Positions 30,799-37,828 of a stretch of DNA of 64,000 bases are shown piece by piece; position 1 is the first letter of the stretch, and every line of letters begins with the position of its first letter. The notes under the pieces were generated by a model. That model saw nothing but the letters and a program-made list of their open reading frames with translations, was not told the DNA's origin and made no database searches. The stretch comes from a virus: positions 1 to 64,000 of IMG/VR virus record IMGVR_UViG_3300005466_000025. The stretch is one strand, 5' to 3'. Both the position numbers and the translations under genes were made by a program.

Positions 30799-31010
30799 GT
30801 GAGATGGGGGACTTTAGATTTGTAAGGGCCAATGAATGTGGTCACCACCCTGTTTTCCCATTTGGGGCCAAGAATACATTTTGTTTGGAACAATACTACG
30901 GGGAAGATGAATACGGGGAGTTATGGGTAAGTGTCGGGTACATGCCTCAGGATAGGGTTGTGAGGTTAATCCAATCCTATTGGAGGCTATTAAAAATAAA
31001 TACTCGATGA
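30795..31010 (+). CDS. hypothetical protein
   Basis: GTGA coupling. Confidence 0.55.
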   Translation: MSEMGDFRFVRANECGHHPVFPFGAKNTFCLEQYYGEDEYGELWVSVGYMPQDRVVRLIQSYWRLLKINTR

Positions 31011-32293
31011 GTACCTGATGATCCCAACACCACTGTTGCCGGCTTTGAAAACAGTAATTGGCCGGGGGGATTAAATCCGACATTTGTCGGTCGTTAGCGT
31101 TGTCCGGAGTGAATACTGGATTGCAATTGCCGGCCCGAATTTGCCGGTCTATTTCCCACCGAGCCCTGTATTCAAGGTGGAATACTACAATGCAACGAGC
31201 TCTTGGGATTTCCCACACATTCCATTCTGATATTGGTAGTGGAATTCCCCGATGGCCCGACTGCAAGTGTTGTCCGGTACGGGCAACAACGTGGGATGCC
31301 TGTATCCATGCCGATGTTACGTTCTGGACAACGTATCTGCAAGCCTAGCCATAGCATGCTGGAACCCCTATATACCCCTAGATACAACCCTCTACCTCGA
31401 ATCCCGCATGGATACAGGGATTGCGGGCAAACCCTCGAATAGGCTTGACTAGGGTACTTGCAAGTCATTACGCTACAGGAAGCACCGCCGCACGCGGCGA
31501 GTTGCTCCCCTGGTAGCGGTCGGCGTCGGGGGTGAGGGGTTCCGGGGCACATATCCCTCGGAATACCCGCCGAATTGCCCCCTCGGAATTCGGTCCCGGA
31601 ATTGCCTAGGCAATCGCATAAGGGGACGAAATGCCGGGTTGTTTTCCGCCCTGCATATGCCAACCAGACTTGCGTATCGACCGGGCAATTCCAGGGAGTC
31701 GATCCCCGAAACAAAGCCAATGATACGGGTTAATCCCTGCGGCCTAATCCGGGGTCAATTGTTCCACGCTAGGAAATGGACGGGGCGAACCCCTTATGCG
31801 AATTAGGTCAACCATTCTCTAACGATTCGTCGATTGAATGAGTCGCTACCTCGGAATTCCACAGTGAACGGCCCAGAAATGCAGGCCATCAATTCCAGCC
31901 GGCAATTCTCATCCCTCACAACTGAATTCCCGATTCCTAGCTAGCCCATTACTACTGTATTCCACGTTGTCAACGCTCAGAACCGCCTAAATCAGCGGTG
32001 GAACGCAGAACGGCCCATTTACTAGCGTATTCGAAGTTGAATACGGCCGACACTTGGGTAAAGATTCGCATATGGTGCGTACCGTTACTGCGGTTATCCG
32101 GGACGAAATAGGAAAGGCTGGCGTGAATGGACGTGGAAAACGGGCCGCTTAAATAGGGTTCGGTACGGTAGGGGCAAGGCTACCCTTTACCCTCTGAAAT
32201 TGGGTACGGGGGGTCACTTATGCGGGGTTTTCCTAGTCCTGTTTTCTCCCTGGGCAATTGACGGTGATTAATCGTGAGCCTAGGGAGTCAATT

Positions 32294-32659
32294 GGATAAT
32301 CCCTCAATAATGCGTCGGGTGAATTAAACGCTGTTTACCCGAAAGGAAATACAATGTCTGATCTGAATACAGAGACTCCGTTTTACTTTCCTACTCGTGA
32401 GCTTATGAACATTGAGACGCTTATTTCGGCGCGAATTGCCGAGTGTAAGCAGGCCGCGATTAAGCAGCCACATAACGCTCACATTCATCTCGAAAGTGTG
32501 CCTAGCTATGAGATAATGGCACAGAGAATTCGGGATGAGATTTCCCGTCGGTTTGAGGGAATCCGGGCGCATAACAATGGCGCTCTTTTCACGGTTAATT
32601 CCGACCGCTAGGTACTAATCAGACTGAAATGCATCCGGCGCATTATCGAGGGATTGTCC
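32294..32659 (+). repeat. gene-enclosing inverted repeat B (32294-32321 / 32632-32659), nested in A
   Basis: 28 bp; 3 G-U, 1 A-C. Confidence 0.9.
32354..32611 (+). CDS. hypothetical early protein
   Basis: CCGAAAGGA RBS motif. Confidence 0.75.
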   Translation: MSDLNTETPFYFPTRELMNIETLISARIAECKQAAIKQPHNAHIHLESVPSYEIMAQRIRDEISRRFEGIRAHNNGALFTVNSDR

Positions 32660-32684
32660 TAAAACCGAAAGGAAATCCCAGAAA

Positions 32685-32936
32685 ATGGCAAAGCTTTCCG
32701 CACGTAACAGAACGGAAATTGCACGGTTTAAGACGACGTTCAATTACGTTCGCTCATTGGACGGGGAAACGGTTACCGTCACAGAAAAGCGGGCGCTAAT
32801 GTCCGACGGCGTTGTCCTTTCTAATTCCGGCTACGGATGGAAAAAGAGAGGAAAATTGCGGTCGGGCGTTACCTCTGAGAAATGGATCAAGAACATGGAA
32901 TTGTCTCCCATGAATTGGGAGAGAATTTCCCGCTAG
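32685..32936 (+). CDS. hypothetical basic early protein
   Basis: CCGAAAGGA RBS motif. Confidence 0.75.
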   Translation: MAKLSARNRTEIARFKTTFNYVRSLDGETVTVTEKRALMSDGVVLSNSGYGWKKRGKLRSGVTSEKWIKNMELSPMNWERISR

Positions 32937-32975
32937 AACGGAATAACCCCGCATAATTGACCCTCCGTATTCATC

Positions 32976-33515
32976 ATGGTAAACGGGGTTTCATAATGCC
33001 GCTGATTGGCAATTTCTCAACCGAAAGGTGCGAAATGCCTAAGGCTGCTAATCTCAAAGGAATTCTCATTCGGATACCGCCGAATATGGCGAAAGCCGGA
33101 TGGGATATCGACGTCGATGTTTTGCGTGACTTTTGCAAGGCATTTGGCATAACGTGGGACATTTCTATCCGGTGGACTTCCGGACAATATACGCGCGGTT
33201 CGGCGGGAGTCCGGAGGGATTCCAACGGAAAAGAAACGCACCACATTACCATGTCGCAAATCAAGTCACAAGAGAGTGCGACGATCACAATTCTCCACGA
33301 ATTGTGTCACTGCATTCAACGGGAAAAGATCGGTTCCCACAAGGAATTCATGAACGAATATCGGCGCTATAGTTCCACGAACTATTCCGGCCGGTACGTT
33401 GCAAATCCGTTCGAAATTGAGGCGCGTGATTTCGCGGACGATAACGCTGCACAGTGGGGAGGAATCCTCTATTAGAGATTGCAAATCGGCGGCATTATGA
33501 AGCCTCGTTTACCAT
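32976..33515 (+). repeat. gene-enclosing inverted repeat C (32976-33017 / 33474-33515)
   Basis: 42 bp; 4 G-U, 1 mismatch. Confidence 0.95.
33035..33475 (+). CDS. zincin-like metallopeptidase domain protein
   Basis: TILHELCHC.Q...Y..NPFEIEAR; CCGAAAGG RBS. Confidence 0.75.
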   Translation: MPKAANLKGILIRIPPNMAKAGWDIDVDVLRDFCKAFGITWDISIRWTSGQYTRGSAGVRRDSNGKETHHITMSQIKSQESATITILHELCHCIQREKIGSHKEFMNEYRRYSSTNYSGRYVANPFEIEARDFADDNAAQWGGILY

Positions 33516-33521
33516 TTGGGA

Positions 33522-33742
33522 TAGGGATTGGGCATTCTACTAATGCCCCGGTATTACCGAAAGGAAAACAACATGATCCGTTTCGCATTGCTTTCCGTAG
33601 TTCTGTGCTTTGTGATGGCGTTTTTTGCAGCCGGCATTTTCGTGCAATATCTCCATACGATGGGGTTTTGAACGTGAAAAGACGATAGACAATTCCCGCT
33701 AGATAAACCTTACCGGGGCATTATTAGAGTGTCCAATCCCTA
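33522..33742 (+). repeat. gene-enclosing inverted repeat D (33522-33553 / 33711-33742)
   Basis: 32 bp; 2 G-U, 1 mismatch. Confidence 0.95.
33573..33671 (+). CDS. 32-aa single-TM micropeptide
   Basis: CCGAAAGGA RBS; MIRFALLSVVLCFVMAFFAAGIFVQYLHTMGF. Confidence 0.65.
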   Translation: MIRFALLSVVLCFVMAFFAAGIFVQYLHTMGF

Positions 33743-33750
33743 GCCTGAAT

Positions 33751-34137
33751 TTCAAGGGCTCTATTGAGGCGGGAAGGCTAATTCAAACCGAAAGGTGAGA
33801 AAAATGCCACGTTTCAATTTCGGATCGGAACGGGAAATTTGCGAGCAAATGGCTGCCGAATGTGAGGCAGCCTGGATCATTAGTGAATATCTATTCACTA
33901 GTGATATCCACGATCAAATTCTGGGCGACAATTGGCGCGAGAGAATCGAAAATCTCGCGTTTGACGTTCGTAATTTCGGGTCGCGTGTTCGTGCTGATAA
34001 TGGCGGGCTACTGTACGATTTCTCATGATTAAGCGTTTGGTAATTCACTGGCGCGAAATCACAAAGGAATACGGATTCGGTACACTCCGAGTCTGGTAAT
34101 AAACAGCCGGCTTTCCCGCTTCAATAGAGTCCTTGAA
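33751..34137 (+). repeat. gene-enclosing inverted repeat E (33751-33779 / 34109-34137)
   Basis: 29 bp; 4 G-U, no mismatch. Confidence 0.95.
33804..34028 (+). CDS. hypothetical early protein
   Basis: CCGAAAGG RBS. Confidence 0.7.
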   Translation: MPRFNFGSEREICEQMAAECEAAWIISEYLFTSDIHDQILGDNWRERIENLAFDVRNFGSRVRADNGGLLYDFS

Positions 34138-34184
34138 AGGAATTAAGGGTAGAATTGAATGGGCGGTTTTCTGAAAGGAAAACA

Positions 34185-34451
34185 ATGCCGAATCCGAAGG
34201 TAATTGATATCGAACATCTTTTGCGGACGGGAAATCTTCTGTATAAGACGTTCGTGACTTACTCCGAATTTATCGTCACCGGAGCCGAATGGTATCGGGA
34301 AAGTGATGAGAGATTGGGCCAGGCTTATTACAACGTACTTTCCGTAATCCGGCCTGATATCGCAAAGGAAGTCTGCGGCGCAAATTGTGATCCGTTTTAC
34401 GACAACAATTTGCTTCCCGATTTCTTTGCGGCGGTCTACAAGCGATGGTAA
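34185..34451 (+). CDS. hypothetical phage protein
   Basis: GAAAGGA RBS; RLGQA..N.L...RPD...DPFY pattern. Confidence 0.75.
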   Translation: MPNPKVIDIEHLLRTGNLLYKTFVTYSEFIVTGAEWYRESDERLGQAYYNVLSVIRPDIAKEVCGANCDPFYDNNLLPDFFAAVYKRW

Positions 34452-34534
34452 TTCTGACGGCATTTGGAATCATAATTGCCGTCACGCTTTGCGTAGTGAT
34501 TCTGCTCGAAATTTGGGCTAAGTACGCCAAATAA
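34445..34534 (+). CDS. 29-aa single-TM micropeptide
   Basis: overlaps upstream stop; MVILTAFGIIIAVTLCVVILLEIWAKYAK. Confidence 0.5.
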   Translation: MVILTAFGIIIAVTLCVVILLEIWAKYAK

Positions 34535-34574
34535 GAGCCAAAATTCCGCCCATTCAATTCTACTCTTGATTCAT

Positions 34575-34986
34575 CCCCTAGAGGGTAATTGCGTTGAAAT
34601 GCCCGTTAGCCTTTCCGAAAGGAAAGTCATGACTAAAGGTGAATGCATCCTCTCAGATTTCGGTTTCTATCGTGTCTGGAACGAGGATATGCAGAGTGAA
34701 AAACACGATGGTAGTTTGTATACCATTCGTGTCCATCGTGCGGAAATCAACGGGAATGTCTACCGTATCCTTTGTGAAAGCTATTACGGTTCCACGAAGG
34801 TATATCGGAACGGCACTTATCTCGGGGATTACGAATTCTGTTACGAGGATTTGCCGAAATTGTTCGCATCGTAATGCGTACCGCATTGTTGTGGTGCGTA
34901 GTGTTCTGGCTGATAATTCTGGACCTAATTCTTAGGTACGGATAACACCGGCAAAACGGGCATTTCTACGGAATTACCAATAGGGG
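34575..34986 (+). repeat. gene-enclosing inverted repeat G (34575-34611 / 34950-34986)
   Basis: CCCCTA..GGTAATTGCGTTGAAATGCCCGTT..GCC vs GGC..AACGGGCATTTCTACGGAATTACC..TAGGGG. Confidence 0.85.
34629..34874 (+). CDS. hypothetical early protein
   Basis: CCGAAAGGA RBS. Confidence 0.7.
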   Translation: MTKGECILSDFGFYRVWNEDMQSEKHDGSLYTIRVHRAEINGNVYRILCESYYGSTKVYRNGTYLGDYEFCYEDLPKLFAS

Positions 34987-35011
34987 TAATTCTGAGGGAA
35001 AGGAAGGGAAA

Positions 35012-35197
35012 ATGGAGTACGGAATTCCCATCAAGACAGCCGAACAGCGCGCAAAAGTCCGGCGTAAAAAGGCTGTCCACAATTCTTCCACGAAGCACGA
35101 AGTTCGGAAGAATCGTTTCCGTAATTCATTCACCCCCATTACTAACGGAATGGACGAGGATATTCCGACTAGTGGTGAGGGTTGGACGCTTAAGTAA
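35012..35197 (+). CDS. small basic protein
   Basis: AAGGAAGGG SD; 61 aa. Confidence 0.6.
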   Translation: MEYGIPIKTAEQRAKVRRKKAVHNSSTKHEVRKNRFRNSFTPITNGMDEDIPTSGEGWTLK

Positions 35198-35553
35198 AGC
35201 GGCCTTTTTTCCTGCTATTTCTAAGCAAATTAGGGATAGCAGGGATGAATGCCGAACGGTATTCAATTCGGATAACAACCCCTACATTGTTTCCGAATAG
35301 GCGTTACCGTAGGGAGAATGAGAGGGAAATGCCTAAGGATATTCCTAGCGGAATTACCCGAATCGGAGGTAAATCTACCGAATTGGGTAGGAGTAATTTC
35401 CTCCAAAAGGCTGCTGAAATCCGAGCTAGGATTTTGGCAAATCAGCCGGAATACAAAGACATAACTAGCGACATAATGTCTGGTGAGTATTCCGGCACGC
35501 TATCCAAACCGGCTGCGGGTTTCGCAGCAAAAAGAAAGAGGAAAGGGAACAAA

Positions 35554-35898: not shown

Positions 35899-36263
35899 TT
35901 CAAAGGCAAAACCTACGCCAATTCTCGGGCGTAAACGTCTAGCGGAAATTACGCTAGCGGGAACCGAAATCTACGGATAGGCGGGAGAGAAATGGTGGGG
36001 GGAGAAATCCCCCCACCTAACCCCTATTGAAAGGAGAAATGAAATGGATAATGCCGGCCGGCAATTACACAGAAATAGAGAGCTCGGGAAAATGGAAATC
36101 GACCGGCAATTAAAATCGAAATGGGGGCCGCGAGATTTTTTAAAATTTTTGATTTTGCGAGATTTTTACTTTTTTTTGGTGATAACCGGCAAAACCTTAT
36201 TTATCTTATATTATTTTACCGTTTCAAGCCATTTTTTCAGGTGTCATCGGTAAATTTTATAGG

Positions 36264-36357
36264 TTTATTTCATTGAGGGTACAGCTTTTTGAGAGCGATT
36301 TTAAATAGACTTTTTCGCGTCTACTGATCGCCAAAGTTGTACTCTCAATGAAATAAA
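36264..36357. repeat. long imperfect hairpin in an AT-rich intergenic region
   Basis: TTTATTTCATTGAGGGTACA / TGTACTCTCAATGAAATAAA plus inner GCGAT/ATCGC and TAGAC/GTCTA. Confidence 0.8.
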
Positions 36358-36478
36358 TCCAAAGGAGGAATAAGAAGATAAAATGTAGCTTACGGCTAAC
36401 AACTTTATCTTGCGCGGGCCGCTCTTATCGGGGGAATTAATTTTCCCCCGGTAATGGCAATCCGAACAGGGAGGAAAG

Positions 36479-36643
36479 ATGGTCACGATTAAAAAGACAA
36501 ACGGGGAAATAGTTATCCTCGGGACAAGCGCAGAGAACCTTTTAATATGGGTTCTTGATTGGTGCGCGAAATCAAAGTTTTCTCCTCTCAATGAAACAGA
36601 AATTGATGAGGCGAAATTTCTTTTAAAAAACCTAAAGGGATAG
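36479..36643 (+). CDS. 54-aa hypothetical protein
   Basis: GGAGG SD; open frame. Confidence 0.5.
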   Translation: MVTIKKTNGEIVILGTSAENLLIWVLDWCAKSKFSPLNETEIDEAKFLLKNLKG

Positions 36644-37231: not shown

Positions 37232-37281
37232 TACCCCTTCATCTTAGGTTTTATTACCTAAGGTGAGGGGGTATTTTTTTT
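37232..37281 (+). terminator. long hairpin with T tract upstream of the sigma factor
   Basis: TACCCCTTCATCTTAGGT / ACCTAAGGTGAGGGGGTA followed by T8. Confidence 0.75.
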
Positions 37282-37306
37282 GGCAAAATACAAACGAAAG
37301 GAGGAC

Positions 37307-37828
37307 ATGGATTTTTCCTCACCATCCCCTGAGGAAATTCTCGCCTTTTCCGAGAATTATGCCAAGCGAATGTATGTTTCAAGACGCTGGCAGAAAGTTG
37401 ATCGGGAAGATTTCGCGCAGGAATTAGCAATCAAACTAATTAGGGCTGCCGTTAGATATGACCCTAATAAAAAAGTGCCTTGGGGGGCATATGCAAATAT
37501 TGTTGCCCGAGGGGCGCTTTTGGATTGGTACAGAAAAATTAACAACCACGAGGAACTTTCCCTAAATAGTTTTGGTGAGGATGACTCGGATTATCTTAAC
37601 GATAAATGGGAAAGTCTCTTCTCCACAGAGGATTTTGTTGACCTAACACCATCAGAAATTATTGAGTGGTCTAAACAATTTCCCGAGCAAAGACAGAAGG
37701 TGATTATTTGTCTGGCAATGGGTTACAACAGAACGGAAACAGCCAGAATCCTGGGAGTCTCTCAGTCAAGGGTGACGAGATTAATTCGCGCTATTCAGAC
37801 ACAATTAATCTCACAGCCCGCGAATTAG
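37307..37828 (+). CDS. sigma-70 family RNA polymerase sigma factor
   Basis: REDFAQE...RYDP....YA....RG.LLDW.RK (region 2); ETARILGVSQSRV (region 4). Confidence 0.9.
   Translation: MDFSSPSPEEILAFSENYAKRMYVSRRWQKVDREDFAQELAIKLIRAAVRYDPNKKVPWGAYANIVARGALLDWYRKINNHEELSLNSFGEDDSDYLNDKWESLFSTEDFVDLTPSEIIEWSKQFPEQRQKVIICLAMGYNRTETARILGVSQSRVTRLIRAIQTQLISQPAN

Follow-up and report, generated by a model that had tools for sequence, protein, structure and literature searches.

Tandem sense-strand helices bracketing small genes in an uncultured phage genome from rhizosphere soil

Introduction

RNase III cuts the stems that flank 16S and 23S rRNA (PMC6582327). In Bacillus subtilis, the enzyme also cuts long-range duplexes in mRNAs; these measure 10-36 bp, and the cuts, which are staggered by 2 bp, lie up to 505 nt apart (PMC11780869). 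Here we describe seven inverted-repeat pairs (H1 to H7) that bracket small genes in a stretch of viral DNA of 64,000 nt (hereafter, the window). The parent record, IMGVR_UViG_3300005466_000025 of IMG/VR, is a complete virus genome of 102,756 bp that carries direct terminal repeats and comes from a sample of rhizosphere soil; the window covers its first 64 kb. The repeats pair in the sense strand, and we consider it probable that they serve as processing or stability elements of a single polycistronic RNA.

The array shares with the leader-trailer helices of rRNA (rrn) operons the pairing of flanks over hundreds to thousands of nucleotides, a helix of at least 20 bp, the tandem arrangement of units, and a structured leader that comes first. 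It differs from them in that the loops are translated mRNAs of 0.16-0.7 kb, in that there are seven units of which one is nested, and in that no canonical boxA was found. The early-mRNA sites of phage T7 (R0.3, R0.5, R1, and others) are similar in that a phage polycistron is presumed to be cut between genes by the host RNase III and that the duplex ends are protective, but they are local intergenic hairpins, whereas the array described here pairs across each gene and has weak junctions. Integron attC cassettes also form arrays of small, promoterless, exchangeable one-gene units with imperfect inverted repeats that act in single-stranded form. An attC site, however, folds locally into a hairpin whose core sites are conserved, and it requires an integrase, whereas the phage arms flank the gene, the arm pairs are distinct, and an integrase is absent.

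The dimensions of the B. subtilis duplexes match those of six of the seven phage helices (PMC11780869), with the loop of H1 (706 nt) and the lengths of H3 and H4 (41 and 38 pairs, compared with the 36-bp bound) exceeding them. The B. subtilis duplexes are scattered single cases in cellular mRNAs (PMC11780869), whereas the phage helices form a contiguous array; here the brackets fall exactly on the untranslated borders of every cistron unit, and a dedicated motif serves as the ribosome-binding site (RBS) of each unit. By analogy, the array may represent RNase III leader-trailer helices applied to mRNAs.

The same layout was found in the early region of phage SP6 (AY370673), where a helix at 674-691/903-920 encloses gene 0.2 and an adjacent helix at 940-969/1491-1520 encloses genes 0.6 to 2, both of them scoring higher on the sense strand. 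SP6 thus has adjacent, gene-bracketing, sense-favouring helices, but in two or three units as opposed to seven, and with unrelated sequences and cargo. We found no published description of the SP6 helices in a search that did not extend to the original SP6 genome papers, and none of tandem gene-bracketing helices in phage mRNAs in a search that did not extend to many subscription papers. These searches agree with an earlier note on this DNA, prepared from the letters alone, which had called the architecture undescribed, although long-range mRNA duplexes cut by RNase III have been published for B. subtilis (PMC11780869). With its seven helices, one of them nested, and its dedicated RBS motif, the present array is among the most elaborate of its kind.

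Helix array and folding

A repeat search recovered seven inverted-repeat pairs at 32,201-34,986, all at the coordinates given in the earlier note. The duplexes were optimised with RNAduplex, and some of the resulting arms run a few bases beyond those originally described. Two short syntenic contigs, L011 (1,345 bp) and L012 (1,727 bp), identified by a profile scan of Joint Genome Institute (JGI) metagenomes, served as relatives for comparison. The arms are as follows.

32201-32233/32940-32973, plus strand: H1, the outer helix; pair probability 0.98; covaries with L012 and L011
32294-32321/32632-32659, plus strand: H2, nested in H1; found as repeat, as duplex, and in the ensemble; covaries with L012
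32976-33017/33474-33515, plus strand: H3; the 3' arm starts inside the stop codon of the third open reading frame (ORF3)
33514-33553/33711-33750, plus strand: H4; found as repeat, as duplex, and in the ensemble
33750-33779/34109-34138, plus strand: H5; found as repeat, as duplex, and in the ensemble
34140-34166/34546-34572, plus strand: H6; found as repeat, as duplex, and in the ensemble
34575-34611/34950-34986, plus strand: H7; the least regular helix, with two internal loops

The whole genome was scanned for gapless helices with loops of 40-1600 nt, with G·U pairs tolerated and a score cut-off of 20. All helices scoring above 20 in the 102,756-bp genome lay within 32,201-34,978, with the exception of a local hairpin at 36,262-36,359. 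The earlier note had suggested that the region be folded and compared with shuffled controls. In 60 dinucleotide shuffles of the 2.9-kb region, 0.03 such helices were found per shuffle, as opposed to seven in the real sequence, and the best shuffle scored 20.5, compared with 21-43 for the real helices. All seven were present in the minimum-free-energy fold of the 2,911-nt plus-strand RNA, with mean pair probabilities of 0.97-0.99 in the ensemble.

The individual helices comprise 27-41 pairs with duplex energies of -46 to -70 kcal/mol; four of them have 27-32 pairs, with the largest numbers found for H3 (41) and H4 (38). RNase III needs about two turns of double-stranded RNA, and every helix reaches this length, as do rrn-type RNase III helices. 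The loops measure 157-456 nt in six helices and 706 nt in H1. Adjacent helices are separated by 6, 6, 8, 7, and 7 nt if the originally described arms are used, as the earlier note had correctly given, and by 0-2 nt if the extra outer pairs are included.

The five junctions between adjacent helices, when folded alone, yielded -10 to -24 kcal/mol, with z values of -0.2 to -1.9 relative to shuffles. The sole segment that differed from shuffles was that from the 3' arm of H2 to the RBS of ORF2 (z of -3.7). Given that the junctions alone fold weakly and mostly no better than shuffles, the design is long-range rather than one of T7-style intergenic hairpins, in agreement with the earlier proposal.

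The arms share a theme on the side of the loop, in which an AU-rich block (for example, ATAATG) is followed by a GC clamp (for example, CCCCGG) adjoining the loop, and a single 1x1 mismatch in the middle of the helix is frequent. The arm pairs, which had been described as each having a different sequence, are thus distinct but have this core in common. The core was considered as a -10 promoter box and rejected, there being no -35 box at the right spacing and the complement placing the same box on the antisense strand. Archaeal bulge-helix-bulge motifs were ruled out, in that the helices carry 1x1 mismatches and not 3-nt bulges 4 bp apart. A candidate outer helix closing the whole array (32040-32204 with 34987-35320) had an energy of -91.7 kcal/mol, which was equalled by 29 of 200 random pairs of the same size and spacing, and it was not retained; its remnant is a 10-bp match between CCTTTACCCTC and the GAGGGAAAG RBS of ORF8.

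Strand of pairing and covariation

Within the originally described arms, we counted 187 Watson-Crick pairs, 17 G·U pairs, 2 A·C combinations, and 13 other positions. The earlier note had reported 15 G·U against 1 A·C, so that the direction of the bias stands with a recount of 17 against 2. The optimised duplexes contain 20 G·U pairs, with A·C in one of the seven 1x1 mismatches, and the corresponding ratio of G·U to A·C in the relatives is 13:0. The 17:2 ratio has a one-sided binomial probability of ~4e-4, and the probability remains <0.01 even if C-to-T change on the plus strand is assumed to occur at 1.5x the reverse rate. The plus-sense duplex is more stable than the minus-sense duplex for all seven helices, by 2-16 kcal/mol. 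Because of the G·U bias, the retention of G·U in the relatives, the compensatory changes described below, and the greater stability of the plus-sense duplex in seven of seven cases, we conclude that pairing is selected on the plus-sense single strand, as had been claimed for the sense RNA.

The contig L012 contains the same leader, an outer helix at 664-701/1346-1385, a nested inner helix around a homolog of ORF1, and the start of a homolog of ORF3. L011 contains the leader, one helix at 518-548/786-816 around a 63-aa gene that faintly resembles ORF1, and a homolog of ORF3 that is preceded by a 5' arm of its own and followed by the initial 20 nt of the 3' arm. The earlier note had proposed alignment of the arms with those of related phages, and the comparison revealed double compensatory changes as well as two paired indels in L011 and L012. 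For H1, the window and L012 share 23 identical pairs and differ by four double compensatory changes and one single change among 31 positions; three G·U pairs are kept, the 1x1 mismatch is shifted by one position, and one pair is lost and another gained beside it. For H2, the same comparison showed four double changes and a paired deletion of one pair, with the inner 14 pairs, including two G·U, unchanged. The helix of L011 and that of L012 differ by approximately 10 double changes and by one base pair inserted in both arms, none of these differences being disruptive. L011 also includes the beginning of the arm that corresponds to the 3' arm of H3, and compensatory changes are present there: of the 13 pairs that can be compared, three differ by double and two by single changes and none is lost, with a T·G wobble and the mid-helix irregularity being kept. 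No helix is disrupted in either relative. The helices thus exist as selected elements of the sense strand, and their pairing persists despite drift in the sequence.

The content of the H1 loop differs among all three genomes. In L012, an unrelated gene with a different RBS takes the place of ORF2 inside the same outer helix, which supports the conclusion that arms can persist while cargo changes, an outcome that the earlier note had anticipated.

The helix of L011 is hybrid-like, with its outer half resembling H1 and its inner half resembling H2. Collapse of a nested pair into one helix, or the splitting of one helix by insertion of a gene, would fit this observation.

Additional genomes were available from IMG/VR as relatives of the capsid protein. 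One of them (G001) ends inside the leader, another (G005) has only scattered helices near the syntenic place, and two others (G003 and G004) have no array. In G001 (L080), whose capsid protein is 95% identical, the leader (133-499, compared with 31398-31844 of the window) is only ~68-72% identical; judging from this one contig, the structural module may be diverging far more slowly than the leader and early region; alternatively, the genomes may be mosaic. A further relative with 60% capsid identity, G002 (L083), has two similar tandem helices of 28-34 bp with loops of 118 and 85 nt at 37275-37615 of its contig; these occupy the syntenic position, within ~1 kb of noncoding sequence immediately before the contig ends.

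Genes and anatomy of the units

The coding features of the array and of the region immediately downstream are as follows.

32354-32611, plus strand: ORF1, 85 aa, with a CCGAAAGG RBS, in the loop of H2; 58% identical to its L012 homolog
32685-32936, plus strand: ORF2, 83 aa, inside H1 and outside H2; an unrelated gene in L012
33035-33475, plus strand: ORF3, 146 aa, HExxH metallopeptidase-like
33573-33671, plus strand: ORF4, a 32-aa hydrophobic peptide in the loop of H4
33804-34028 and 34025-34099, plus strand: ORF5 (74 aa) and the overlapping mini-ORF 5b (24 aa)
34185-34451 and 34445-34534, plus strand: ORF6 (88 aa, CTGAAAGG RBS) and the overlapping hydrophobic mini-ORF 6b
34629-34874 and 34874-34945, plus strand: ORF7 (81 aa) and the overlapping hydrophobic mini-ORF 7b
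32339, 32665, 33021, 33557, 33788, 34171, and 34615, plus strand: positions of the RBS motif
35012-35197, plus strand: ORF8, unbracketed
35187-35210, plus strand: terminator-like stem with a T run
35200-35254, plus strand: 25-bp local hairpin

The enclosed products are coding and not stable noncoding RNA, in that ORFs with RBSs and with homologs at the protein level occupy the loops. Six of the seven main ORFs have the RBS CCGAAAGG and one has CTGAAAGG, as the earlier note had recognised, in each case between the 5' arm and the start codon. Of the eight copies of CCGAAAGG on the plus strand of the whole genome, six are RBSs of bracketed genes; other genes use AAGGAG or GGAGG, and the motif is kept in L011 and L012. 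In units 6 and 7, it is located at the tip of a 6-bp hairpin with a GAAA tetraloop. The motif could be a handle for class-specific translational control or cleavage.

The 5' arms end 17-32 nt before the start codon, in an untranslated spacer. The 3' arm of H3 begins inside the stop codon of the unit's last ORF, and the other 3' arms begin at most ~40 nt beyond that codon. Because the arms lie in untranslated spacers at the unit borders, ribosomes never need to unwind the helices.

ORF3 is the most conserved cargo gene, with eight homologs of 47-75% identity. Its motif is HELCH, and the protein gave weak matches to the models for SprT, M78/ImmA, and the protease CapP of the cyclic-oligonucleotide-based antiphage signalling system (CBASS). 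ORF3 may be an anti-defence protease or one that cleaves a regulator. Four mini-ORFs of 23-32 codons are present (33573-33671, 34025-34099, 34445-34534, and 34874-34945), three of which encode strongly hydrophobic products; such mini-ORFs may specify small membrane peptides. Those designated 5b, 6b, and 7b overlap the preceding stop codon (ATGA, ATGGTAA, and TAATG, respectively) and fill the loop up to the 3' arm.

The region at 35012-35254, with ORF8, the terminator-like stem, and the hairpin, is likely the end of the transcription unit. Scans for sigma-70 promoters and for terminators gave results at or below shuffle expectation, with no T run after any 3' arm. Farther downstream, the genome contains just one further strong helix, the local hairpin at 36262-36359, with 27 bp and a loop of 44 nt; a third partial copy of its arm is found at 36572-36596, 280 nt downstream.

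Leader upstream of the array

The array is preceded by a noncoding region with the following features.

31010-32200, plus strand: noncoding leader of ~1.2 kb with no credible ORF; block conservation with L011 and L012
31871-31914, plus strand: hairpin with a covarying 6-bp stem and a conserved 11-nt loop, CAUCAAUUCCA (RNAalifold, three genomes)
32026-32046, plus strand: hairpin CGUAUUC-N7-GAAUACG, with the stem identical and the loop variable in the window, L011, and L012
32184-32195, plus strand: 12-nt motif CCTTTACCCTCT, 5 nt upstream of H1, invariant in three genomes with variable flanks

The stem strands of the hairpin at 31871-31914 are AGAAAU/AAUUCU in the window, with one A·A mismatch, and AACAAU/AUUGUU and AAUUUC/GAAAUU in the other two genomes, which are fully complementary. 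This hairpin looks like a binding site for a protein or an RNA. A pattern search for the leader hairpin matched only two unrelated contigs. The leader as a whole (31010-32200 in the window, 1-517 in L011, and 1-663 in L012) holds many internal complementary segments and may be a discrete, stable, structured RNA, such as an antitermination leader or a noncoding RNA. Rfam gave no family match for 27-38 kb of the window or for the leader of G002. The motif CCTTTACCCTCT is present once in the genome and occupies a position equivalent to that of boxA. A scan for boxA at 31.0-32.2 kb with up to three mismatches detected none, the consensus being of the Escherichia coli or Bacillus type, which may not be that of the host.

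RNA contigs and genome context

The available RNA data consist of assembled contigs from two metatranscriptome runs, X23 and X24. In both runs, an RNA contig of ~385 nt covers approximately 31,785 to 32,172 or 32,173 and ends 28 nt upstream of H1. A 193-nt RNA contig of run X23 (34,985-35,177) begins in the last bases of H7 and reaches the terminator-like site that follows ORF8. At both of these boundaries next to the array, the DNA contigs continue. The RNA contigs thus hint weakly that RNA boundaries lie at the outer edges of the array. Neither run has an RNA contig over 32174-34984; with a depth of 3-7, this result is uninformative with regard to expression and was not used as evidence.

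In the genome, minus-strand structural genes extend to ~29 kb and are followed by small plus-strand genes at 29.1-31.0 kb, the noncoding region of ~1.2-1.3 kb (31.0-32.2 kb), the helix array, and then plus-strand metabolic genes. Uncultured relatives of the capsid protein number in the hundreds, and no cultured relative with >30% identity was found for it. No close relative was detected by blastn among GenBank phages, and a search of IMG/VR with ORF3 and a neighbouring 217-aa protein returned no match. No tRNAs were found. A search of the phage genome for a T7-type RNA polymerase gave no match, but the control was also without a match, so that the result is uninformative.

Processing model and alternative explanations

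The reading that we favour, and regard as probable, is that the inverted repeats form sense-RNA helices bracketing the units of one polycistron and act as processing or stability elements that are cut by the host RNase III, by analogy with rRNA maturation. The fourteen arms would be RNA elements of a single plus-strand transcript that probably runs from within the conserved 1.2-kb leader to a point near 35.2 kb. Once transcribed, each 3' arm would pair with its own 5' arm to form a helix of 27-41 bp closing a loop of 157-706 nt that contains one or two genes, and adjacent helices would abut (0-8 nt), leaving almost no single-stranded linker. The host RNase III would then cut each helix in the manner of the leader-trailer helices of 16S and 23S rRNA, giving rise to single-unit mRNAs whose 5' and 3' ends are still paired together. 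With its ends paired, a message might escape decay that depends on the 5' end or proceeds by 3' exonucleolysis, and each RBS might be insulated from adjacent units. In this model, cleavage, the identity of the nuclease, the effect on stability, and early timing are inferred.

Several points weigh against this interpretation. G·T wobble is tolerated in single-stranded DNA (ssDNA) as well, so that strand bias alone cannot separate RNA from plus-strand ssDNA; RNA is nevertheless far more plausible, because the loops of 157-706 nt are full of translated ORFs. The covariation rests on two short relatives. No RNA end was mapped inside an arm, and the RNA contigs are without strand or true ends and may include carried-over DNA. 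With no canonical boxA before the array, the analogy with rrn operons is incomplete. The presence of RNase III in the host is assumed, and the shared arm core together with the dedicated CCGAAAGG motif could point to a sequence-specific factor other than RNase III.

All of the structural evidence applies equally to helices that are never cut. Sense-RNA clamps of this type would hold the stop codon of a unit beside its own RBS for re-initiation, remove single-stranded entry sites for RNase E, and insulate the folding of each cistron. The end of the 5' arm at 17-32 nt before the start codon, which corresponds approximately to the edge of a ribosome footprint, fits such an arrangement, as do the beginning of the 3' arms in the stop codon or within ~40 nt of the last ORF, the abutment of the helices, and the RBS motif common to the units. 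Helices of 27-41 bp are, however, well above the ~20 bp that RNase III accepts, and their escape from a near-universal enzyme is hard to see (PMC11780869). The weak RNA-contig ends at the borders of the array also fit cutting better, and we regard persistently uncut helices as possible but rather unlikely. Cutting might, on the other hand, serve to destabilise the messages, with rapid decay limiting potentially toxic host-takeover proteins to a short period in a manner similar to lambda sib retroregulation. The cargo consists of small ORFan proteins, hydrophobic peptides, and a metallopeptidase-like protein, as is typical of genes whose timing is tightly controlled, and in B. subtilis an effect on mRNA decay has been discussed for the cleavage of long-range duplexes by RNase III (PMC11780869). 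After a cut in a helix of at least 27 bp, however, both new ends stay paired, which is usually protective, and a destabilising function seems improbable to us.

Inverted repeats might also act on DNA, where they would delimit mobile cassettes of one gene each or mark segments that invert or recombine, similar to integrons, miniature inverted-repeat transposable elements, or invertons. The difference in cargo between relatives inside a conserved outer repeat would agree with this notion, and arms kept alike at the DNA level would also give rise to covariation. The loops of 157-706 nt, however, preclude cruciforms. The complete genome lacks a tyrosine integrase (PF00589) and a resolvase or invertase, with control genomes having matched in both searches; the arm sequences are specific to each pair, so that there is no common recombinase site; there is no room for target-site duplications; and the 17:2 bias and conserved positions of G·U would be meaningless for duplex DNA. 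The earlier note had held that inversion or excision of the segments in DNA would make them recombination sites, and contigs of two DNA metagenomes, which drop rare variants, bridge the junctions with no joint, inversion, or deletion. Given the absence of a recombinase, the clean DNA contigs, the pair-specific sequences, the lack of room for duplications, and the G·U bias, we consider recombination sites very unlikely. The further suggestion of the earlier note, that the paired RNA ends might be ligated to form circular mRNAs, is without support because the phage encodes no RNase III, RtcB, or RNA ligase, searches of its genome for these proteins having given no matches, and we attach almost no credence to it.

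Significance

If helices that bracket the units of the polycistron are indeed cut, the design of rRNA maturation would be applied here to protein-coding messages, seven times in a row. It would provide a simple rule for obtaining stable, insulated, individually tuned mRNAs from one promoter and would explain in physical terms how small anti-host genes can be exchanged as modules, and processing sites would become predictable from sequence alone in uncultured phages. The helices would also be natural parts for synthetic operons, as gene insulators that require neither a ribozyme nor a Cas endonuclease. The layout of SP6 makes the bracketing idea testable in a laboratory phage-host pair.

More tentatively, and as a conjecture that we put forward with low confidence, unrelated phage lineages might package accessory or early genes as "mRNA cassettes" (arm, dedicated RBS, ORF, arm), which the host RNase III would excise from a single transcript as panhandle mRNAs with mutually protected ends. 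Each helix would be autonomous, so that cassettes could be swapped, nested, or replaced with no effect on adjacent ones. If this conjecture is true, mRNA cassettes would amount to a general principle, not described so far, by which phages organise and express their genes.

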